NCBI RefSeq assembly: GCF_004010195.1
Contig: NC_057720.1
Span: 67,372,844 to 67,436,843, forward strand
Direction: 5' to 3'
Length of the DNA: 64,000 bases
Source of the DNA: Chiloscyllium plagiosum
Lineage: Eukaryota
Shown here in pieces: positions 32,215 through 62,990 of the stretch. The notes beneath the pieces are model-generated. The model did not search any database. It had not been told where the DNA came from and was given only the letters and a program-made list of their open reading frames with translations. Position numbers and translations under genes: made by a program. Positions within the stretch are counted from its first letter, which is position 1. Each line of letters begins with the position of its first letter.

Positions 32215-35002
32215 GCAGTAGTGAGTAGAGTGGGTTCTTTCTTGATTAAATGTTTTTGGCGATATGTCTCTTGATTAAGCTTCAAATATAAGCCATAACT
32301 ATTCATTTAACCTGGGGCAGTGTTTGTAGAGGAATAAGATGGTTTTAATTTCTGGGTCTGTAGATTGTGAAAGAACAAAAATGGCCTTTAATAGAGTGAT
32401 ATGTACTTCTTGTCAATGTGGGAGTTTAAAGAGAATTTAAGGGTTACTGCAGATTATATCTGCCATAAATGCTGTTGGCTGCAAATCTTATCAGATCGAA
32501 TGGATCGGTTGAAGAGACAGTTAGAAGCAATGAGGAATTTGCAACAGCAACAGTATGTGATGGATGGCAGTTATAGGAAGGGGGGGAAGTTGTAGATACA
32601 CTCCCATAGATGGATTAACTCCAGGAAAGGTAAGAGAGGTAGGCAGCTAGTGCAGGAGTCTTTTGTGGATATACCCATTTCAAACAGGTATGCTGTTTTG
32701 GAATATGTAGGGGGTGATCGATTCTCAGGGCAACGTAGCACAAACAGTTGGTTTCTGTTATTGAGACTGGCTCTAATGCAACAAGGGGTACGTTGGGTTC
32801 CAAGAGATCAATTGTGTTAGGAGATTCTCTAGTCCGAGGTACAGAAAGACTTTCCAAACATAGACTGGGACTACCATAGTGTTAAGGGTTTAGATGGAGA
32901 GGAATTTCTTAAGTGCGTACAAGACAATTTTCTGATTCAGTATGTGGATGTACCTGCTAGAGCAGGTGCAAAACTTGACCTACTCTTGGGGAATAAGGCA
33001 GGGCAGGTGACTGAGGTGTCAATGGTGGAGCACTTTGGGGCCAGCAACTATAATTCTATTAGATTTAAAATAGTGATGGAAAAGGATAGACCAAATCTAA
33101 AAGTAGAAGTTCTAAATGGGAGAAAGGCCAATTTTGACGGTATTAGGCAAGAACTTTCAAAAGCTGATAGGGGGGAGATGTTGGCAGGTATAGGGACGCC
33201 TGGAAAATGGGAAGCCTAATTAAGGAGAATCCAAAGGGTTTTTACAAATACATTAAGGACAAAAGGGTAACTAGGGAGAGAATAGGGCCTCTCAAAGATC
33301 AGCAAGGTGGCCCATGTGGGGAGGCACAGGCAATGGGGGAGATATTAAATGAGTATTTTGCATCAGTATTTTCTGTGGAAAAGGACATGGAAAAAATAGA
33401 ATGTAGGGAAATAGATGGTGAGAACTTGAAAAATGTCCATATTACAGAGAAGGAAGTGCTGGATGTCTTGAAACGCATAAAAGTGTAAATTCCCAAGACG
33501 TGATCAGGTATACCCTAGAACTCTGTGGGAAGCAACGGAAGTGTTTGCTGGGCCTCTTGCTCAAGTATTTGTATCATTGATAGTCACAGGTGAGGTGCCG
33601 GTAGACTGGAGGTTGGCTAACATGTTGCCACTGTTCAAGAAATGTGGTAAGGACTTAGCCAGGGAACTATAGACCAGTGAGCCTGATGTCAGTGGTGGGC
33701 AAGTTGTTAGACGGAATCCTGTGGGACAGGATGCACATGTATTTATTTGGAAAGTCGAAGTCTGATTAGGGATAGTCAACATGGTTTTGTGCGTGGGAAA
33801 TCTTGTCTCACAAATTGATTTGAGTTTTTTGAAGACGTAACAAAGAGAATTGATGAGGGCAGAGCAGTGGATGTGATCTATATGGACTTCAGAAAGGCGT
33901 TCGACAAGGATCCCCATGGGAGACTGGTTAGCAAGGTTAGATCTCATGGCTGAAAGGTAGAAGACAGAGGGTGGTGGTAGAGGGTTGTTTTTCAGACTGG
34001 AGGTCTGTCATCAGTGGTGTGCCACAAGGATCAGTGCTGGGTCCACTACTTTTTGTCATTTATATAAATGATTTGGATGTGAGCATAAGAGGTATAGCTA
34101 GTAAGTTTGCAGATGACACCAAAATTGGAGGTGTAGTGGACAGCGAAGAGGGTTACCTCAGATTACAACGGGATTTTGATCAGATAGGCCAATGGGTTGA
34201 GAAGTGGCAGATGGAGTTTAATTTGGATAAACGCGAGGGGCTGCATTTTGGGAAAGCAAATCTTAGCAGGACTTATACACTTAATGGTAAGATCCTAGGG
34301 AGTGTGGCTGAACAAAGACACCTTGGAGTGCATGTTCATAACTCCTTGAAAGTAGAGTCATAGGATAGTGAGGAAGGCATTTGGTATGTTTTCCTATATT
34401 GCTCAAAGTATTGAATACAAGAATTGGGACGTCATGTTGCAGTTGTACAGGCCACTTTTGGAATATTGCGCGCAAATCTGGTCTCCTTCCTATCGGAAGG
34501 ATGTTGTGAAACTTGAAAGGGTTCAGGAAAGATTGACAAGGATGTTGCAGGGTTGGAGAATTTGAGCTATAGGGAGAGGTTGAATAGGCTGGGGCTGTTT
34601 TCCCTGGAGTGTCAGAAGCTGAGGGGTGACCTTATAGAGGTTTATAAAATCATGAGGGGCATAGATAGGATAAATAGACAAAGTCTTTTCCCTCGGATGA
34701 GGGAGTCCAGAACTAGAGGGCATAGGTTTAGGGTGAGAGGGGAAAGACCTAAGGGACAACCTTTTCACACAGAGGGTGGTACGTGTATGGAATGAGCTGC
34801 CAGAGGAAGTGGTGAAGGCTGGTACAATTGCAACATTTAAAAGGCATCTGGATGGGTATATGAATAGGAAGGGTTTGGAGGGATATGGGGTGAGTGCTGG
34901 CAGATTGGGCTCGATTGGGTAGAGATAACTGGTCAGCATGGACAAGTTGGACCAAAGGGTCTGTTTCCATGCTGTACATCTCTAATGACTCTCTGACTCT
35001 AA
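32215..35002 (+). mobile_element. CR1 (HER1-like) LINE with 5' region, internally deleted, non-functional
   Basis: ORF1 zinc finger (CTSC..WE...YICHKC) and esterase GDSLVRG, jump to endonuclease FPNIDW, RT GVPQGSVLGPLLF..FADDTK, tail tgactctc; frameshifts and stops. Confidence 0.92.
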
Positions 35003-43157: not shown

Positions 43158-43469
43158 ATATCTCGTCTACTCTTATCTCCCCTCTTCGGGCAATTGCCCT
43201 CCAGATCCAATCCAATGAACTTTCATTGCCCTTTCTTTAGGGCAAGTGTGTTCTTCCTCAGGTAAGGAGATCAAAACTACAGTTCTTTAAGTGTGAGTTC
43301 ATTAATCATGTTGTATAATTTTATTAAGAATTTACTCCTATACACAATCTTTTCCCAACAAAAAACTAACATTCTAGGCTTTTTGGACATCAAACTATTA
43401 CAGAAATACCAAAGAGATGGATCTGAACAAGAATAAGATTTCTAAATTAATAAAACATAATGTCACTTA

Positions 43470-44735
43470 TGGTTTGCATTCTTTAATTCCAATAATTGGC
43501 TAATTTTCTGTAAGTGGAAAATTTGAATGAATTATCAGAAATAACTTTTAGATGGGACTCCATGAACTACAAATATAAGAAGGCATTAATATGATAATCC
43601 CTGGCCTTGATTTTCCCAATTTATCCCACCAGGCCAAATAAGTCATGTTGATAAGATGCCCCAATTTTAATAAACAAATCTGAGCGAACAATTGATTGAT
43701 TGGTGCGTTGTACTGGTGTAAAAGATGTTTCAAAATAAACAAAATCTCAAAACAATTGTTGAATTAAAAGGAATATGTATTTACATATATTGTGTGCATT
43801 TTCACATGAATGCCATTTTCACATTATTTGTTGAAAAATTCTATTTGCAGTTTGGAATAAAACATGCCACTTTGTGTCAATCCCTAATTACAAAAGTTGA
43901 ATAATTTAGACAAATCATTTTGTTCAGTCAAGTGTCTAAAATGTAACCTTTCATTGTAATGCTATGCAACAAATCTGGAAAAGTTGTAGTTTAAATTTCA
44001 CAAATGTTAATAAATTAATAAATGAAGAGGTTAATATTGTATGGTTGAAGAATGGAATGACAACTTGATACATTCAAAATGATACAGTTGAGACTAGTTA
44101 GTAATATCCTTAATTTTCAACAATTTGATACTATATTCTTCTTATCTTACATTACATAATGCATTTGAATGTTTGTTTTAATACATGTACAGTAGAATCT
44201 ATAAGGCATCTCTAAAATACTCAGTCTTTACAGAAAGTAACTTCACCAAAGTCATTCGGAGACCAAGCAGTTGGGCATGTCTGTTTTTTCATGAAATGCT
44301 CTGCATCCCATCATTAGCCCTAGATTCTGGGCAACTAATCCAAAGATCTGCATGTTCGGTACTATGACTCCCAAAGAACGATACTGTCTTGAGACATAAA
44401 ATCCTGAAGCAGACCAGGTCTCGGTAGGTACTTTTCTCTTAAAATAGAATTTATCTCCTTTCAAAGGTCCAGAAGAAGATTGTCCATGCATTTTTTTTTA
44501 AAAAGGGACCTCTCCCATGTTGGAGTAATAAGACAAAATTTCTGAACTCCAGTGCTTGGTCCCAATGTCTTTGCCTTTTTATTGGTGTAAAAGGTGAGGA
44601 TTACATTTCAACACCAGAGGTTGAGAGGATGAGCAGCTATGACTTGGCCGTGTCCAGCAGAGTAGTTGCGTTCTGACCGTCCCACCCTTCTTCACTGTCT
44701 GCTCCCCCACCTCTGTTGCAGCTTCCCCTGCACCC
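43470..44735 (-). other. S1PR1: S1PR1 3' UTR (approximate)
   Basis: TE-free AU-rich stretch after the stop; AATAAA (minus) at about 44578-44583 and ATTAAA at about 43483-43488. Confidence 0.4.
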
Positions 44736-45866
44736 TCATGCTGAGGAGTTAACGTTGCCTGAGGACAACAGGGTCTCAGGCGTGCAGCACTCGTCCTTTT
44801 GCTGATGAGATGAGTTGTCCGACCTGCTGGGGCTGAACTCCAGAGCGACGGTGAGCGGGGGCTTGTGCCGCCAGGCCGGCCCGCGGTGACACAGGCAGCA
44901 CAGCAGGCGGAAGAACGCCCGCCTCATCTCCCGGCTGGTCAGCGTATAGATGACCGGGTTCATGGCTGAGTTGAGCACGGCCAAGGCCAGGAACCACTGG
45001 GCCTTGTAGAGCACCGGACAGCCTCGTGCCTGACACGCCACATCGAGCAGCAGGAGGATGAAGAGCGGAGACCAGCAGGCGATGAAGGCGCTCAGCACGA
45101 TCATCACTGTCTTGAGTAGCGCCAGGGACTTCTCGCTGCTCTTGGAGCGCAGGTCCTTGCGGAAGGTGAAGCTGCGGCTGCGGGAGCGCACCAGGACATA
45201 GATGCGGGCATAGAGCAGCACGATGGCCAGCAGGATGAAGCTGAAGACGGTGGTGCAGAACAGGATGTAGTGCTTGTGGTAGAGGGGCAGCACAGTGGAG
45301 CAGTGCGTGAAACCCTGCAGGCAATTCCAGCCCATGATGGGCAGGCCACCCAGGAGCACGGACAGGAGCCAGCAGCCGCTGATGAGCAGGAAGACCCGGG
45401 AGCTGCCCCCTGAGCTGTGTGGCTTCATCTTCAGCATGGTCAGGTAGCGCTCTATGGCAATAGCCAGCAGGCTGAGCACCGAAGCAGCGAGGGCCACAAA
45501 CATACTGCCCTCCCTCAGGAACCACTGCACCGGGGTCAGCCTGTAGGTGTTGGAGCCCGACAGCAGGATGTTGACGGTGTAGGCAGCGCCGGCCAGCAGG
45601 TCCGAGAGTGCCAGGTTGCCGATGAAGTAGTACATGGCGCGGTGGAACTTTTTGGTCTGCCAGATGGCCAGCAGCACCATGAGGTTCTCCAGGATGATGA
45701 AGCAGCAGATGACAATGAAGAAGATGGACGAGACAGTGAGACCGGCCGCTGGGCCACCAGGGCTGACCCTCAGCTTGCCAGTATAGTTGTAATGCTGCAG
45801 GATGATGTCCGGGTCCGTGTAGCTGTAGCCCATGTACGCTGCGGGGCGCTGCCTACCCGTCTCCAT
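44736..45866 (-). CDS. S1PR1: Sphingosine-1-phosphate receptor 1 (class A GPCR), 376 aa, intronless CDS
   Basis: HYNYTGKL N-terminus, QWFLREG (S1P-binding Arg/Glu), [41 protein letters not shown]-terminal [11 protein letters not shown] and SSGNVNSS, all typical of S1PR1. Confidence 0.96.
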
Positions 45867-46800
45867 CCTAATTCACTTGCTTGTTGTTGTTGCTGTTGTT
45901 GTTGCAGCTGGCGCGCTCCTGTCGGCCGGCAGAGGGCGCCGCGATTGGCGGGTCAGTGAGGAGCTGCGGAGAGACCGCGAGCCATCGCCACTCTGCAAAG
46001 GAAACAACAACAACCCGCAGGATTACTCACCATCCCAAAACTCTTGACTTCAAAATGCAAAAGGTACTGTATCCCCAAGCCCCCAAACTTCACTGAATTG
46101 CACATGCAACATTTTGCCTCACAGTATAAACAGATGCACTATATTTACGCCCCACCAAAATTGTTTGTAGCTTTTTTTTTCTGCATTATAACCGACTGCA
46201 GTTGGGGGAAAATATTTTTAAAAGCTCCCCTTCGCTGCGAAAGGCGCTTTTTGAATGCAAGTTCTAATTTTATGGAAACAAAAGTCGTCGTATAACGTTT
46301 CAAAGCGACTATCCCGCAGACGGACGGCTCAATGTCCTTATGTAAATCAGTTATTCCCACAACAGCCAGCGAAGTCTTTAACAAAAAAAATTTCTGTCGT
46401 TAAAAATGCATTTCATTTTTGTTGAAGCACGTTTCAAGCTTCAGTAGAAACGAAAGGGAGGCGATGGAAGCAAGTCGAGAATAAATCAGTAACATTGCAA
46501 CTTAGTCTGTGAGCAGTTTAAACGTTTTTTTTAAACCAGATGAAGATTACCTTGGTTTGTTGAAAACGTTAAAAAATAGCAGCTAAGTGGAGCGAGACCG
46601 TGAGAACAGGATACTGTCGGCGATTGCAAACAATAAGAAACCGGCGTCTTCTCTACAATAGGTCCATTTGTGAAAAAAAGGACCTCGCTTCAGTCCCAGC
46701 CTGGTGTCTGTCACCGACTCAGCAACATCAAAATTAACTCAGCTCTGAGACTGGGTGGCGATAAATAGAAGATGCACGCAGCTGATAACAGTGCAAAAAC
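45867..46800 (-). other. S1PR1: S1PR1 5' UTR: probable non-coding exon 1 (donor at 46551), intron 45993-46550, UTR part of exon 2 at 45867-45992
   Basis: Strong acceptor ttgtttcctttgcag at 45993 and donor AAG/GTAATC at 46551/46550; matches the two-exon architecture of S1PR1. TSS is not determined. Confidence 0.55.
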
Positions 46801-48350
46801 AGGAAAAAGGTTGACGCAGGGGTATCCAGGACAGGAGCAGCCAGACAACAGAATTTAACAGAAACTGTTAGAAACGCCCTGCCACATACTTAATGCACAG
46901 ATAAAAGACTGCAACGTCTGATTTCCATTTGCTTTGCAAAGACAGCGAAATGACTTTCCTGAAAATGACAACCGATAAATAAAATTCTCGTAAACTCCCA
47001 GAGCCTGACAGCATCTCCAACTTGGGACGTTATAGAAGTCAGGAATGGGAGTGCAAAAGTGGCACCTTTACTTTTAAGTAACAAAGACGTTGCAATTTTA
47101 AATGTAAAGTCTGCAATATTTATCCACAGAACTGCATTAATAATTGCACTCGTCGGTGTCGGTTCTGACCAAAACCGCTGAAATATAGTTGGAGTCCTTA
47201 CCCAGTCTGTCTCATGTAGCTGAGTAGTTTTCCCACGTGTTGTCAGCCTAAGACCTTGGCTGTCACTGAAACACATCGAAGAACCGAACGGGTTTTGACT
47301 GGGACACTGAGTTCACAGGCGCCCCCCTTTTCCTATTTGCTCCAACAGCCTACACTAACCCTGTCAGAGAGGTGCACTCATTTGGCAGCGACATTGCTTT
47401 GTGCTGGAAGTCACCGAGTGGGGACATCGTGCAAGTTATTTTCACTGCAAACTTGAAATGACCTGAATTCATCCCCACCGTTTCAATAACGATATCTAAT
47501 AAGGCGAAACCGGGTTTCAAATGTATAGATTTCCAAGGCGTCAATATTTTATCACAGCTCGACCCCAGCCTGACATTTCAGGGGTCAGTAATCTTAGGTG
47601 CAGGATTTGTTTTCCGTGCTTCTTAGTTTAGTGCAATTTATGTGTAAATTTTAAAAGAAACTTGGTACAAAGTAGTTGTCCCTGCTGACAAACCGAACTG
47701 CACAAGTTTGATGCGCGAGGTGGTATGAGTCTTGCATGTATTTTACAGTCGCCAGCACAACTCGCAACAACCTCCCCCATCTATTAATTTTTTTTAATAA
47801 ATAAACAGGTCTGCTCACATCGCCTCAAGGCCATAGTGAGGGGCGCTATTGAAAAGCAATGGTGGAATTTCCCGCTAACCCCAGTGGGTGGCTGACTGGA
47901 CTGCGGAGAGACCAGTCTATCTGGAGTTAGGGGGTGGGGAGGGGGAGTGGTATTGTCTGTCACTGTCGGCTCAGGGCTGGGGCAGGGAGGGTGGCGGTGA
48001 GACCCATTTCCTGACCAAAAGGCAGCTTGTTTGCAATGGGACCTGGTCTGAGGGAGCTGCGGCACTGCAGGAAGTGACTGCGGAATCATTTGGACCGAAT
48101 GTGAGGCCGAGTGGGTGGAGTGTGAGGGAGGGGAGATGGGCGGGTGGGGTGGATGAGAGCAGGAAGGCCGGGGAGGTGGAGGGGAGATTTCCCTGCTGCC
48201 ACCATGTAGACAGTCGTTCACAGAAAGTGGTGGAATCCGGCAGCAAGCTACCTCCCTGACGCTTCTCTGCTCCTCCATTAAAAAAATCCTTTAAAAAAAA
48301 TATCCAGTGTTAGGGTTCGAGCTCATTAAAGCTGGTGCTTGTCTTTAAAG
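46550..48350. promoter_or_regulatory. CpG-rich divergent promoter region between S1PR1 and the Harbinger-derived ORF
   Basis: High CpG content, no recognisable SINE or LINE, G-rich GC/GT boxes (gggcgggtgggg) at 47930-48185. Confidence 0.5.
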
Positions 48351-48502
48351 GTCAATCATGGGAAACTGGTCCACACTTGCCAACCTACACTGGAGATTCC
48401 TGAAGAGCAAACTACTTAACCCAGGATCAGAGGTGGGGAAGGGGATATTGTTCACCATCAGCCACAGGGCAGCCACGAGAGTGTACTGTGAAGACCCACA
48501 GG

Positions 48503-49630
48503 ATGGGGGCAGCGGCCATTGCAGGATTTCTCCTTGTGGAAGAGGAGGAGGAACAGCAGCAGAGGAGGGCAGCCCAGGAACGCCGAGGGCACAGACGGAT
48601 AACCACGCGGCGCACAAACTACCCCAGGCACCGGGTGTTTAGGAACAGGGTCAGTTACTTAGGCTTGACAGAGGAGCAGTGCCTGAAGAGGCTGCGACTG
48701 AGCAGGGATGCTGTGACCGAGGTCTGCCGTTTGGTCCAAGGTGATCTACACGGAGAGTCGATCATCCGCACTGCATTGCCAGTGGCAGTGAAGGTCACCG
48801 CTGCCCTGAACTTCTACGCCACAGGGACTTTTCAGGCACCCACGGCGAACATCACTGGGATCAGCCAGTTTGCTGTGTACCGTTCCATTAAGGAGGTCAC
48901 TGATGCATTGATTCGACATGCTCCCACCTACTTGAGTTTCAGGAGGGACGAAGAGCAACAACGACAACAGTACTTCTTCAACATTGTCGGCTTCCCCAAG
49001 GTTCAGGGGATTATTGATTGTATGCAAGTTGCCATTTGTGCACCGAATAACAATCCCATGGCCTACTTAAATGCAAAAGGCTACTACTCTATCAATGTCC
49101 AAATCATATGTGACCACCGACAGAAAATAATGAACGTCAATGCATGCTGTCCAGGGGGCATGCACGACTTTTACATTCTGAAGCAATCTGAGGTGCCCTT
49201 GATGTTTGAAGGGGAAGGAAAGCTGAACGGATGGCTCCTTGGAGATCTAGGTTATGTGCTGCAGCCATGGCTGATGACTCCACTGCTGCACCCTGGTACC
49301 GAAGCTGAGAACAGATACAATGTTGGACATGCACAAACCAGTAGTGTCATAAAACAGACATTTGGACTACTGAAGAAACGCTTCAAGTGTTTGGATCAAT
49401 CAGGGGGTGCCTTGCGATATGCACCAGAAAAAGTCAGCAAGATTGTAACTGTGTGCTGCATGCTGCACAATATTGCCATGGACAGTGGCCTCTCCCTCGA
49501 TTTAGATGAGGAGCTTCAATCCATAGAAGATGAGGAAGATCATGGCTCACAGCAGCCACCAGACCTGGATCAGCCACTACAAGCAGCGAAGCAGATGCGT
49601 GAGGAAGTCATTGCACAGTTCTTTAGTTGA
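48503..49630 (+). CDS. PIF/Harbinger transposase-derived protein (HARBI1-like, DDE_Tnp_4 family), 375 aa, intact ORF, third catalytic residue E replaced by K
   Basis: Motifs LRLSR, ALNFYATGTFQ..GISQ (HTH), GFPKVQGIIDC, KGYYSINVQ, PGGMHD, WLLGDLGY, WLMTP, E.RYN..H, VIKQTFGLLKKRF, CCMLHN, acidic tail, REEVIAQFFS. ATG at 48503 in AGGATGG context; AATAAA at 49727. Not the HARBI1 orthologue (N-terminus differs). Confidence 0.9.
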   Translation: MGAAAIAGFLLVEEEEEQQQRRAAQERRGHRRITTRRTNYPRHRVFRNRVSYLGLTEEQCLKRLRLSRDAVTEVCRLVQGDLHGESIIRTALPVAVKVTAALNFYATGTFQAPTANITGISQFAVYRSIKEVTDALIRHAPTYLSFRRDEEQQRQQYFFNIVGFPKVQGIIDCMQVAICAPNNNPMAYLNAKGYYSINVQIICDHRQKIMNVNACCPGGMHDFYILKQSEVPLMFEGEGKLNGWLLGDLGYVLQPWLMTPLLHPGTEAENRYNVGHAQTSSVIKQTFGLLKKRFKCLDQSGGALRYAPEKVSKIVTVCCMLHNIAMDSGLSLDLDEELQSIEDEEDHGSQQPPDLDQPLQAAKQMREEVIAQFFS

Positions 49631-49726
49631 GGGCTTCTGCTGTTTTCTGGACTTGGTTCTTCTCTCTTTTTGCATTTTGGTTACTGAACAGTTTTTTTAA
49701 TTGCTTCTCTAATTTTGTCACTTCAC

Positions 49727-49732
49727 AATAAA
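49727..49732 (+). terminator. Putative poly(A) signal of the Harbinger-derived gene
   Basis: AATAAA about 97 nt after the TGA, followed by GT/T-rich sequence (gtgtgttttattgtg). Confidence 0.45.
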
Positions 49733-49949
49733 ATTAGACTTCGAAACTATCATAAAAATGTGCAATATATTAAATAAGTGTGTTTTATTGTGAGTTGGTG
49801 GGCTTGCACGTTCGCAGCATATGAAGAAAGTGTGGCACCTTTTCAGGATCTGTACCTCTACAGGCTTCCTCAGTGGGGAAAATAACAAGAGATGGCTTTG
49901 CACATGAATAAGCAAACACCTTTTTTCTGGTTCACTTTTGAGATTTGGC

Positions 49950-50830
49950 CATTACCGGTATATCCAACATTTATTGATCATCCTGAGTTACTTTTGAGAA
50001 GTGGTAGAAGCCCATGAATCATTATAGTCTAGCTACCTCAGCAGGAAGGGAGTTCCAGGTCTTTGATCCAGAGATAGTATGAGTTAGGGCGGTGTTTGAC
50101 TTTGTGAGAAACTTGGGGATGGTGGTATCACCAAGCATTTGCTGTCCTTGTTTTTCTAGGGTGGTAGAGGTGATGCGTTTTTGAGGTGGTGTTGAAGGAA
50201 ACTTGCTGAGTCACTCCAGTGCATCTTGTGGAAAGTGTATACTGCTGCTGTTGTGCATAAGTGGTAAAGGAGTGAATATTGCAGATGGTCAATGGAGTGC
50301 CAGGTAGGATGTTTTATTCAGGATGGTGTTGAGCATTTTGATTGCTGTTGGAGCAGCACTCATACATGCAGATTGAGAGTATTTGGGAAATTGAGAGGAA
50401 AATTATGCATCAAGGAATTCCCAGCCTCTACTTTTGTGACACAGATGGCACTTCAATTAAAATCCTCATCAATAATGACACTCAATAATTTTTTGATGGC
50501 AGATTCATTAATTGTAATGTTGTTGAATGTCAGGCAAAGATAGTTAGCTTGTCTCTTGTCGGAGGTCATTTTTTGAAACTTGTGCTGCGTGGATGTTCTT
50601 TACTGATGAGGCAGGGCATTGACAATGGAGGAAAGTAAAGGAAACAAATTCTGTACTCCAGCTATCACTACTCATCAGAAAATCCTGTCTCATACACCCA
50701 AAGATTTGCAGGTTAAGAATCAGTCTGTTCAGCTGCATGAAGACCCCTGGTAGATGATCAAGACCCTGAGTAGATGCTATCCTCAAATTGTTGCCAACTG
50801 GCCACTTTACAGTTATTAGGTAGATTGAAG
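49950..50830 (-). mobile_element. Old CR1/L2-group LINE fragments
   Basis: Homologous in reverse to 58990-60375. Confidence 0.6.
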
Positions 50831-60646: not shown

Positions 60647-62990
60647 TGTGAAATAATTCCAGAGAGGCTGCATTCCCGTAATCAAGTCACCCTTTATTCA
60701 CACATGCATAGCACTTGACACTGGTCCAGTTTCCTCAGAGCTAGCTTTCATAGTGAATAGAACCTCTGACATTCCTGTTTATCTCTGTCAGCCATGGCTC
60801 CCTGATTGGACTAGATTAAAAGCCCCAGACAGGGAACTTATATTCTATAAGGTCCACCTGGCTGATCTTGTTACTATACTATGTTCCTCCCTCTGTAAGA
60901 CTGGGGTTGTTGGCCTATTCTTTTTCTTGTAGCATCTGTTGGGGTTTTTTCACATCGGGTCTGATTCCTCTGACTCAGCCAAGAAGTGGCAAGTACCGGA
61001 CTGTAGCACATTCTTGGTCCCGGAGCGTCTCAGAAGAAATTCATCCTTTTCTTCAGGCAGTAAAGGCGTCGAAGCCGCCGTGTCCACCTCAGACTCTGAG
61101 GTTTCTTCGACGCTAGATAGAGGGGGAGAAGCCATGGGTTCTGACAGCCTTCCCAGATGTTCTGAGAGGCTGGTTATGTTTTGTTCCTGTCTCGTTTGCA
61201 GGTTTCATGTTATCCATGTGCTTGTGCAGGACCGCCTTCCTTATGTCAACTTTGTACATCACAGGACTTGACCTCGCATCGACCATGCTTCATACCCATT
61301 CAGGGCTATTTCTGTGGTTTCAGCACCAAACTTCATCCCCTGAAGTAAACTGTCTCTTTTGCTTAGAGGAATCTTGTACCAGACATTGGTGTTCCTGATG
61401 CCATTTTACCACTTCCCTCCCAGCCTGGGAAGATCAGATTTAACCTGGTGCAGAGTCTTTTCCGCATTAGCAACTCTGCTGGAGCTGTCCCTATAGTTTC
61501 ATGAGGGGTGGTCAAATAATCTGATAGGAGCAGGGACAGTTTAGTATCTGGCAAAGCTGTAGGCTGTTTCTTTAAGCCTGCCTTCAAAGTTTGGACTGCT
61601 CTTTCTGTCAGACCATTGGACAATGGATGGTATGGAGCTGTCTTTATATGCTGAATGCCATGCAACTTTAGGAAATACTTGAAATCCCTGCTAGTAAATG
61701 ATGGCCAGTTGTCTGTGACCAACAATTTCAAGAGCTCGTATATTGCAAATGTTGCTTGCAGCTTTTCTACAGTCCCTGTGTTTGACAAATGAACTTGATG
61801 CATGTCTAGCTACTTTGAGTAGGTATCCAGAATGACTCAGAACATTGAGCCCATGAAAAGACCTGCATAGTCAATGTGTAACTGAGTCTCGGCCTTACCC
61901 AGCCATTCCCACAAATGTGGGAGAGCTGCTGGCAATAATTTTTGCCTTTGTTGCACTCTGGGCAGTGCCCCACCAACTTGGCTATGTCAGCATCCAGTTT
62001 TGGCCACCAGACATAACGTCGCGCCAACATCTTCATTTTGAACATCCCTGGATGACTCTGGTGGAGTTCAGCCAGTATCTGGTGGTGACCTTTGCTCGGG
62101 ATGGTCACTCTAGTTCCCAAGAATAATATGCCGACCTCTACTGTGATCTGGTTTTGCAGGGTCCAGAAAGGTTTCAATTCTGGTTGTGATGGCTGTTTTG
62201 TTTCCCCCATCACCACCACTGTTTTAGTTTTGCCAGGACTGGATCTTTTTCCATTCACAGTCTGATATTGTCAGTGGTGGCTGGAAAAGTGTCCAAAAAG
62301 TTTAAAGCCAGAACAGACTCCTCAAGCGGCATCACCACTGGTGGTGTATCTGCCAGCAGGATGTGGCTGAAAGCATCGCATTTGTTACTTGGCCTCCCAG
62401 ACGGTGTTCCAACCTGTAATTGTATGCACTTAAACTGAGAGCCCACAGCTGAAGCTGATCTGAAACTATGGGTGGCATGGCATTGTTCTCTTTAAGTAGC
62501 CCTAGCAGGGGTTGTGATCTGTTACTATTACAAATTTACTCCCATAAAGTATTGGTGTAACTTTCTCACTCCAAAGATGGCTGCCAAGCCTTCTTTCTGT
62601 ATGTGGGTGTATTTGCATCAGCCAAAGCCTGGGAAGCATACACTATTGAGCACTTCTCTCCATTGGGCCATCTATGAGTCAACAATACCCCAATACCATA
62701 CGGGGAAGCATCGCGTCTCAGCACCAGATCTCGCTTGGGATCTCAGTGTGCCAGTACCTTACATGATGATAACTGCTTCTTCACTTCCCTAAAGGCTAAG
62801 TCTTGACTGTGAGACTATTTCTAAGGTTAGAGCTTTTTCAATAGCAGATAAATGTCAACCTGGGGTAGACTTTGTAAAATGTTCCCCATCTGACGATACT
62901 CCAAATGGCAGTCTTGTATATTGGTACGGATCCTTTTGGGTATTAATTGTAGCATACCTTTGGGAATCCTCATCTAACTGCACGGTATGC
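60647..62990 (-). mobile_element. Ty3/Gypsy LTR retrotransposon remnant (RT piece, RNase H, integrase, PPT, 3' LTR)
   Basis: YQYTRLPFGVSS, ILAELHQSHPGMFKMKMLARRYVWWPKLDADI..CPEC, VTDN..FTS..F..TAPYHPLSNGLTERAVQTLK; PPT at about 60884-60894; LTR about 60647-60882 ending in CACA. Confidence 0.9.

Follow-up and report, generated by a model that had tools for sequence, protein, structure and literature searches.

A host gene derived from a Harbinger transposase, with an altered active site, beside S1PR1 in three orders of sharks

Results

A Harbinger-derived coding sequence with an altered active site

A 64-kb stretch of the genome of Chiloscyllium plagiosum (hereafter the window) contains an open reading frame (ORF) derived from the transposase of a Harbinger element (48503–49630, forward strand), which lies head-to-head with the gene S1PR1. 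We refer to it as the 375-aa gene, after the number of amino acids (aa) it encodes; details of the locus are given in Table 1. An earlier reading of the DNA letters (the sequence-only reading) had described an uninterrupted frame in strong Kozak context, followed by an AATAAA signal and divergent from S1PR1, and each of these details holds: there are no internal stops over the 375 codons, the start codon has A at −3 and G at +4, the signal is present, and S1PR1 is encoded on the minus strand, with ∼250 bp between the two transcripts. The analyses below identify the 375-aa gene as, almost certainly, a Harbinger transposase that has been domesticated as a host gene.

The product matches the Pfam domain PF13359 (DDE_Tnp_4) over residues 171–323 (E 1.3e-31), with a score of 109.8 bits against a curated cut-off of 24.8, and the match spans positions 1–158 of the 158 in the model. 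The catalytic triad (Asp, Asp, Glu; DDE) is incomplete: D172 and D248 are kept and lysine (K284) occupies the position of the glutamate. Among 149 family representatives this column holds Glu in 123 of 144 non-gap rows. Broken copies in the same genome that cover the site carry Glu in 21 and Lys in 4 of 35 instances, from which it follows that Glu is ancestral and that Lys arises easily; in the 375-aa gene it has been fixed. Neighboring motifs have drifted to AKG (at 191) and PGG (at 217): where the family has T174/H175, R191 and S219, the 375-aa gene has M/Q, A and G. Family-conserved residues that are altered, and fixed, in all seven ortholog rows (see below) include T174M, H175Q, R191A, H195Y, S219G, P252V and E284K. 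The active-site residues and drifted motifs given in the sequence-only reading thus stand. The protein is predicted from these changes, with considerable confidence, to have lost transposase cutting.

Table 1. Features of the locus, a derived copy and the sister genes. Coordinates without a locus or genome prefix are those of the window.
Feature	Position	Strand	Details
Harbinger-transposase-derived coding sequence	48503..49630	+	375 aa, one exon; Pfam, orthologs
N-terminal helical, helix-turn-helix (HTH)-like domain, ∼residues 57–137	48671..48913	+	predicted by model helices; of the large parts, the least variable among orthologs
RNase H-like DDE core, residues 148–332	48944..49498	+	predicted by model, structural matches
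D172, first catalytic Asp, kept (GIIDC)	49016..49018	+	D in 7/7 ortholog rows, 126/147 family rows
D248, second catalytic Asp, kept (LLGD)	49244..49246	+	D in 7/7 ortholog rows, 125/143 family rows
K284 at catalytic Glu site	49352..49354	+	codon AAA; K in 7/7 ortholog rows
Unspliced 5′ leader	48157..48502	+	5′ limit taken from the outermost contig end rather than from a mapped start site
Start-stop upstream ORF	48204..48209	+	GCCACCATG context (textbook Kozak)
94-codon upstream ORF	48358..48642	+	other frame, overlaps main ATG; no Pfam match
3′ untranslated region (UTR)	49631..49753	+	AATAAA at 49727–49732; contig ends, L032 similarity end at 49753
G-rich gap between divergent transcripts	47902..48156	.	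putative shared promoter in CpG-rich region
S1PR1 distal upstream exon, splice donor 47202	47202..47901	−	joint 45992–47202 in X1, X6, X7, X12
S1PR1 proximal upstream exon, splice donor 46551	46551..47058	−	joint 45992–46551 in X1, X6, X7, X16
S1PR1 coding sequence	44736..45866	−	376 aa
Probable 5′-truncated processed copy of the 375-aa gene mRNA	L032:1501–1775, G000:C9:7090481
Sister gene L002	G000:C1:69923268		HD motif lost; first Asp lost in some species; reaches rays
Sister gene L003	C37:6093030		K/R at Glu site
Sister gene L004	C88124:608		second Asp and Glu lost; reaches rays
Sister gene L005	C17:57239072		first Asp lost; reaches rays

Copy number and hallmarks of transposition

A search of the genome with the DNA of 47900–50200 returned 39 matches: the locus itself, one 3′ piece on contig C9 (144 bp, 88% identical), two paralogs (65% and 80% identical, the latter over 60 bp) and 35 instances of a repeat that begins beyond 49960. 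Copy counts are lower bounds; nonetheless no full-length DNA copy was found elsewhere in the genome, and the 375-aa gene is single copy. At the protein level 109 of 8419 candidate loci were scored, and stops interrupt 99 of them. Five of those scored are full-length and stop-free, at 44–100% identity (the 375-aa gene itself and four loci, L002–L005, treated below as sister genes); the next best intact locus after the 375-aa gene is 55% identical. The remaining stop-free loci comprise a more distant full ORF (L041) and four partial rows. Two further protein searches ranked the same five intact loci at the top, and in none of the three, with the best candidates scored, was there an intact element-like Harbinger copy. 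Shorter relatives amounted to three distant matches among 152 candidates, with no fragments of orthologs.

Harbinger elements duplicate the target sequence TWA on insertion. The sequence-only reading had seen neither terminal inverted repeats (TIRs), nor a TWA target-site duplication (TSD), nor a partner Myb ORF, and scans agree, with nothing above chance for the repeats and the duplication. Inverted pairs within 43.5–55 kb are at most 29 nt long and 71–89% complementary (the 25 longest of 242). There are 10 TWA-flanked pairs of 14-mers with up to three mismatches, where shuffled sequence gives 6.9 on average (range 3–10, 20 shuffles); none of the 10 has fewer than three mismatches. A hidden Markov model (HMM) built from 11 Myb domains of the same genome finds no Myb/SANT domain in the window or in 10 kb on either side.

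The surroundings are also as first described. The gene falls in the longest stretch without shared repeats (43159–50041, by comparison with 81 fetched loci and with the window itself), and other transposon-like frames are broken: of 14 further stop-to-stop frames of at least 130 codons, three have Pfam retroelement matches, all of them fragments of 140–154 codons. These pieces are integrase fragments in two separate frames (61366–62270, minus strand) and a reverse-transcriptase fragment (33941–34360, plus strand).

The 3′ piece, L032, is likely a 5′-truncated retrocopy, to judge from its structure. It matches 49509–49753, continues into a short A-run and shows no similarity past either end; the match to the UTR beats 300 of 300 shuffles, those to the flanks do not. 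It differs from the 375-aa gene at 15 of 122 coding positions and at 24 of 121 aligned UTR positions, with nine gaps, and no target-site duplication of note surrounds it. Such a copy would imply past expression in the germline, with use of the same poly(A) site.

Orthologs and selection

Orthologs are present in Chiloscyllium punctatum, Hemiscyllium ocellatum, Rhincodon typus, Carcharodon carcharias, Scyliorhinus torazame and S. canicula. Protein identity is 88.3–97.1%, as compared with 84.6–98.7% for S1PR1 in the same six species, and all six carry Lys at 284. In five of the six the record numbers of the ortholog and S1PR1 are consecutive (GCC33086/33087, XP_060686224/225, g46890/g46889, XP_041064058/059 and XP_038650666-7/668-9); in S. 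torazame the two lie on a chromosome of equal length. The records thus place the 375-aa gene beside S1PR1 across three orders – carpet, mackerel and ground sharks – that split roughly 180–200 million years ago, and both an intact neighbor of S1PR1 in other sharks and a shared K284, for which the sequence-only reading had proposed to look, are found. Its suggestion of a shark-lineage gene holds for these three galeomorph orders, by the records, rather than for all sharks: no ortholog is listed for Stegostoma, Mustelus, Cetorhinus, Heterodontus, Heptranchias, any ray or Callorhinchus, each of which has an S1PR1 record, nor for Pristiophorus. The absences from Stegostoma and the rays carry some weight because sister genes are annotated there.

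Comparison of codons 1–163 of the 375 with another organism (organism C) gives seven synonymous and two replacement changes among the differences listed (omega ∼0.11; binomial p 0.003), a ratio well below one, as expected of a gene in use. Neutral simulations without indels (1000 runs) leave the ORF open in 28.8%, 2.5% and 0.1% of instances at 0.03, 0.1 and 0.15 substitutions per site, respectively; at 0.1 substitutions per site protein identity is 81%. Length differences among orthologs are of whole residues. Together with the seven of nine changes that are synonymous and an identity like that of S1PR1, they indicate constraint on the protein, that is, purifying selection as read from the coding sequences. 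Constraint is uneven: among the seven ortholog rows 9 of 107 positions vary in residues 41–147, versus 37 of 183 in residues 148–330 (Fisher p 0.008). Around the K284 helix 12 of 36 positions vary, and S. canicula has Glu at the neighboring position 285.

Transcription and the S1PR1 promoter

Eight sequencing runs were compared with the stretch: five with RNA-like contigs, each from a different study (X1, X2, X6, X7 and X12), plus X16, X19 and X20. All five RNA-like runs cover the ORF without a joint, the extremes being 48157 and 49751. Among the runs listed as containing the stretch none is recorded as RNA; however, four of the five RNA-like runs contain spliced S1PR1 joints (GT–AG; 45992–46551 or 45992–47202), and these contig sets therefore hold RNA. 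The 375-aa gene is transcribed, as the sequence-only reading would require of a host gene. Contigs begin at 48157 (X1), 48168 (X12), 48224 (X7), 48301 (X6) and 48330 (X2), with no joint in the leader, and end at 49714–49751 in X1, X6 and X7.

The bin 48015–48155 has zero cover in all five RNA-like runs and is covered in X16. Since the distal upstream exon of S1PR1 reaches 47901, some 250 bp separate the divergent transcripts. The observed-to-expected ratio of CpG is 0.33–0.98 over 44.5–49.0 kb, versus mostly 0.1–0.3 in the flanks. Human S1PR1 also has a divergent transcript, a long non-coding RNA (lncRNA) called LISPR1/S1PR1-DT, which acts on S1PR1 (PMC6868825, PMC11395311; here and below, statements from the literature refer to the available parts of each paper). 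By analogy, this suggests that the promoter already worked in both directions before the arrival of the ORF.

S1PR1 itself (45992–47901) has two alternative upstream exons, with donors at 46551 and 47202, that share one acceptor at 45992. Cover in X16 is even (∼50) over 45900–46679, yet the spliced S1PR1 joint occurs there at a depth of 715. Processed S1PR1 copies were considered as the origin of this joint, and none was found (one match of one candidate); X16 is perhaps a mixed library of DNA and RNA.

Predicted structure

An AlphaFold model of the product, built with 99 sequences, has a mean confidence (predicted local distance difference test, pLDDT) of 84, and the fold as modeled is intact. 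It comprises an N-terminal HTH-like domain and an RNase H-like core, the two domains of the PIF/Harbinger transposase family. The top structural matches, which span both domains, are piggyBac (Z 10.1, root-mean-square deviation (rmsd) 4.5, 231 residues aligned) and Tn5 (Z 9.1, rmsd 5.8, 249 aligned); integrase cores match at Z 6–7.4. Residues 67–144 align with HTH domains, the HTH of sigma region 4 among them (Z 5–5.8). In the model the first strand of the core carries D172, D248 comes shortly after a later strand, and K284 is part of a long helix (267–293); D, D and E usually occupy these places in the DDE fold.

Foldseek returned no match in the PDB at E ≤ 0.001. Twelve sequence matches among solved structures at E ≤ 1 (best 0.016) were taken as chance. 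A homodimer prediction without alignment (two copies of residues 38–375) scored 0.00 and speaks neither way.

Relationship to HARBI1 and to other Harbinger-derived genes

All of these shark proteins bear the database name ‘putative nuclease HARBI1’. HARBI1 is a vertebrate gene derived from a Harbinger transposase, with NAIF1 as its partner (PMC9392472). The 375-aa gene resembles it in belonging to the same superfamily, in its Pfam domain and in being a single-copy host gene without element ends. In contrast, HARBI1 is reported in all jawed vertebrates and the 375-aa gene was found in three orders of sharks only. Among the best 120 of 271 matches to the latter there is no mammalian protein, and proteins outside sharks reach at most ∼53% identity; among 1.84 billion representatives one 50% cluster stands far above the rest. 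By these comparisons the 375-aa gene does not appear to be HARBI1, in keeping with the sequence-only reading. True HARBI1 was not located in the C. plagiosum genome by the protein searches: fourteen stop-free partial DDE matches considered as candidates proved to be broken copies, and a search with the coelacanth relative P0032 again ranked the same five intact loci at the top.

Close counterparts are found in plants. ALP1 joins PRC2 as an accessory component (PMC4671723), and HDP1 belongs to the IDM1 complex and works with HDP2 (PMC5339849). Like the 375-aa gene, these are conserved host genes of Harbinger transposase origin with a broken DDE triad, no TIR or TSD and conserved synteny; they differ in their separate plant origin, and in that their complexes and partners are experimental, whereas the 375-aa gene is known from sequence. 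In insects, domesticated PIF/Harbinger genes were co-domesticated with Myb-like partners (PMC9710019). In both the insect and the shark sets, a single animal group has captured transposases of one superfamily more than once; unlike the insect genes, the 375-aa gene has no linked Myb gene, its candidate partners being on other contigs. Autonomous PIF/Harbinger transposons of fish (PMC9179366) have the transposase fold and most motifs in common with the 375-aa gene, which differs from them in having no TIR, TSD, Myb ORF, copies or complete DDE triad.

Trees of 27, 34 and 50 rows were drawn from a 96-row set and cluster representatives; true HARBI1 is in none of them. In the 50-row tree the orthologs group together (100/100); their stem is long (0.5), and their shallow crown agrees with the species tree. 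An elasmobranch-only Harbinger clade (100/99) encloses them together with L002, L003, L004 and L005. Also found were species-specific, apparently element-like relatives in Scyliorhinus, Heterodontus and Pristiophorus. The four sister genes share with the 375-aa gene this clade, a single coding exon without stops, acidic tracts at both the N and the C terminus and slow evolution; they differ in being 44–55% identical and in that each has its own active-site lesion. Each is conserved in other sharks or rays. L005 belongs to one 90% cluster, whose 25 members come from sharks and rays. Some 6 kb upstream of L003 is a C2H2 zinc-finger exon on the opposite strand (L052:668–1636, minus), with a CpG-rich region between, and L003 may also be head-to-head with a host gene.

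Approximately unbiased (AU) tests rejected one origin for all five genes that leaves out the species-specific relatives (p-AU 0.0013), shared descent of Lys or a clade with L003 (p-AU 0.003), and shared descent of Lys with Pristiophorus P0007. These rejections imply at least two captures, and a Lys in the 375-aa gene that arose separately from that of L003.

The 375-aa gene may have begun as a copy, made by early duplication or retroposition, of L002, an older gene of sharks and rays, with the copy since lost or left unannotated beyond the three orders; we give this origin real weight, a little short of even. L002 is the sister clade in the 27-row (97/95), 34-row (93/97) and FastTree (0.99) trees, the two genes are 55% identical in protein and 65% in DNA, and each has one coding exon and a DCM motif. 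Yet the join is open in the 50-row tree, there is no DNA similarity outside the coding region, and an AU test rejects a position of the 375-aa gene among the shark L002 genes (p-AU 6e-5), so that any duplication must predate the split of sharks and rays and requires several losses. The sequence-only reading had spoken of an independently co-opted gene. Co-option is upheld; independence is less secure, because the closest relative, L002, is itself domesticated and the 375-aa gene may be its early duplicate.

Discussion

Domestication of Harbinger transposases is a known route to new genes, and the 375-aa gene adds another case. As a whole the data are best explained, in our estimate with somewhat better than even probability, by a single-copy, transcribed host gene, conserved beside S1PR1, whose product would act as a non-catalytic chromatin scaffold. 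The functional core of this proposal, that the protein is a scaffold without nuclease activity and acts together with a domesticated Myb/SANT protein, is by analogy an evenly balanced call. It is favored because the active site has a reversed charge and altered motifs, the fold is intact, constraint is stronger on the N-terminal region, and HARBI1–NAIF1, ALP1 and HDP1–HDP2 provide precedents. The sequence-only reading had likewise suggested a nuclease-dead chromatin factor or a transposon repressor; both roles are putative.

The history could be as follows. A copy of an elasmobranch Harbinger element, or an early duplicate of L002, would have landed just beyond the distal promoter of S1PR1, where the ORF could use the divergent transcription of that promoter; the element ends and the Myb ORF would then have been lost. 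The active-site changes T174M, H175Q, R191A, S219G and E284K would have been fixed before carpet, mackerel and ground sharks split, with the intact fold and the conserved N-terminal helical domain kept for binding DNA or a partner. A Myb/SANT protein may bring the 375-aa protein to the nucleus and to its target sites, as in the parent element and in HARBI1–NAIF1, ALP1–ALP2 and HDP1–HDP2, and there it may recruit or modulate a chromatin complex. In Harbinger elements it is the N-terminal end of the transposase that binds the Myb protein (PMC9392472).

Eleven stop-free Myb_DNA-bind_5 domains (L058–L068) were found on other contigs of the genome (150 scored candidates; first-exon domains). Seven of these, L062–L068, share 34–42% identity with the Myb portion of a gene model from Pristiophorus in which the two Harbinger ORFs are joined, and are candidate Myb/SANT partners on the strength of that similarity.

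Several observations weigh against this proposal. The partner, the location and the loss of activity all rest on inference, and D172, H221, D222 and D248 are invariant in the seven ortholog rows: a pure scaffold need not keep them. No Myb gene lies near the 375-aa gene, and none of the 11 genomic Myb matches is on its contig. Synteny was read from record numbering rather than from DNA, and the ratio of replacement to synonymous substitution (dN/dS) from nine listed changes. The zebra shark (Stegostoma) has records for S1PR1 and three sister genes and none for the 375-aa gene, while for Mustelus and Cetorhinus there are S1PR1 records only, the sister genes being likewise unseen there; in all three the gene may be dispensable or unannotated. 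The sequencing runs were chosen by their match to the stretch, and hence cover it by choice, and the contigs are without strand or level. Raw single-cell reads gave three partial matches at the 3′ end in X19 (∼2% sampled) and zero in X20 (∼6% sampled, where a zero is no test). Finally, the two upstream ATGs in the leader, which the sequence-only reading had overlooked, may dampen or limit translation.

Four other accounts bear on the same evidence. That most worth weighing, though we judge it improbable, is a dominant-negative brake: a dead subunit that binds active transposase, its Myb helper or the element ends, and so blocks transposition of its own family. The genome is rich in broken family copies (99 of the 109 scored loci, from 8419 candidates), the protein keeps its fold and both Asp residues with a third residue of reversed charge, and apparently element-like relatives exist in Scyliorhinus, Heterodontus and Pristiophorus. 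Against this, the three genome searches (best candidates scored) reveal no intact copy to restrain, yet constraint continues between close relatives; just one of 44 broken copies scores best against the 375-aa gene among 12 queries; and the protein evolves slowly, with no sign of an arms race.

A retuned enzyme, in which the invariant acidic residues bind metal and support nicking, strand transfer or an RNA-directed activity without the canonical Glu, is a somewhat weaker candidate again. It would account for the retention of D172, H221, D222 and D248 in all orthologs, in contrast to L004 and L005, each of which has lost an Asp, and S. canicula has Glu one position on, at 285. However, a positive residue replaces Glu in every ortholog, further changes are fixed in the DCTH, NRK and PGS motifs, and the region around the K284 helix is variable (12 of 36 positions). 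In rice a single change to the DDE triad is enough to lower Ping transposition sharply (PMC4671723).

There is a slim chance that what matters is divergent transcription from the S1PR1 promoter, as with human LISPR1/S1PR1-DT (PMC6868825, PMC11395311), and that the protein is secondary. The short distance between transcripts, the region free of shared repeats and the upstream ATGs fit such cis-regulation; the excess of synonymous changes (seven of nine), the whole-residue length differences and the S1PR1-like identity speak instead for constraint on the protein. Lastly, a recently immobilized copy awaiting decay, a caveat of the sequence-only reading prompted by the single transition from Glu to Lys (and Lys is seen in 4 of 35 broken copies), is refuted for practical purposes by the common site, open frame and Lys in three orders, an omega of ∼0.11 and the lack of near-identical copies.

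Five conserved genes, all from the same elasmobranch Harbinger family, sit in one shark genome under the label of a nuclease, each with a damaged active site: differently disabled, they form a natural series for the role of dead Harbinger transposases in animals. The genome also contains candidate Myb partners, and both catsharks and bamboo sharks serve as laboratory species. In addition, the 375-aa gene illustrates a way in which an ORF, once captured, may acquire a promoter: from the divergent side of a long-established developmental gene. The literature searched yielded no description of the 375-aa gene, of its four sister genes or of shark Harbinger-transposase genes in general, although Repbase reports and supplements could list such. 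The available parts of PMC9392472 and PMC9710019 mention a single vertebrate gene of Harbinger transposase origin, HARBI1, whose function they call unknown; those of a survey (PMC9179366) report no Harbingers in the elephant shark and ask for checks in other cartilaginous fishes.

More speculatively, and doubtfully, sharks and rays may possess a multi-gene chromatin toolkit, built from one Harbinger family, of at least five dead transposases, each disabled differently, paired with several domesticated Myb/SANT proteins, the 375-aa gene being the member that took over the divergent arm of the S1PR1 promoter, the source of a lncRNA in humans. If so, it and S1PR1 would be regulated together in endothelial or lymphoid cells, with feedback from it on S1PR1.

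Other Harbinger-like genes

The searches touched on further genes of this kind. The ESM Atlas returned DDE_Tnp_4 clusters only. In C. plagiosum, L041:1333–2448 (minus strand; G000:C31:21592016) is a distant, intact DDE_Tnp_4 ORF of 371 codons in which the second Asp and the Glu are changed; it is probably a further domesticated gene, of greater age. Two other tight clades consist of Harbinger-like proteins whose DDE sites are broken, one in a caecilian, a turtle and birds (P0031, P0037–P0047) and the other in the coelacanth and caecilians (P0032, P0034, P0035). Both may be other unnamed domesticated genes.

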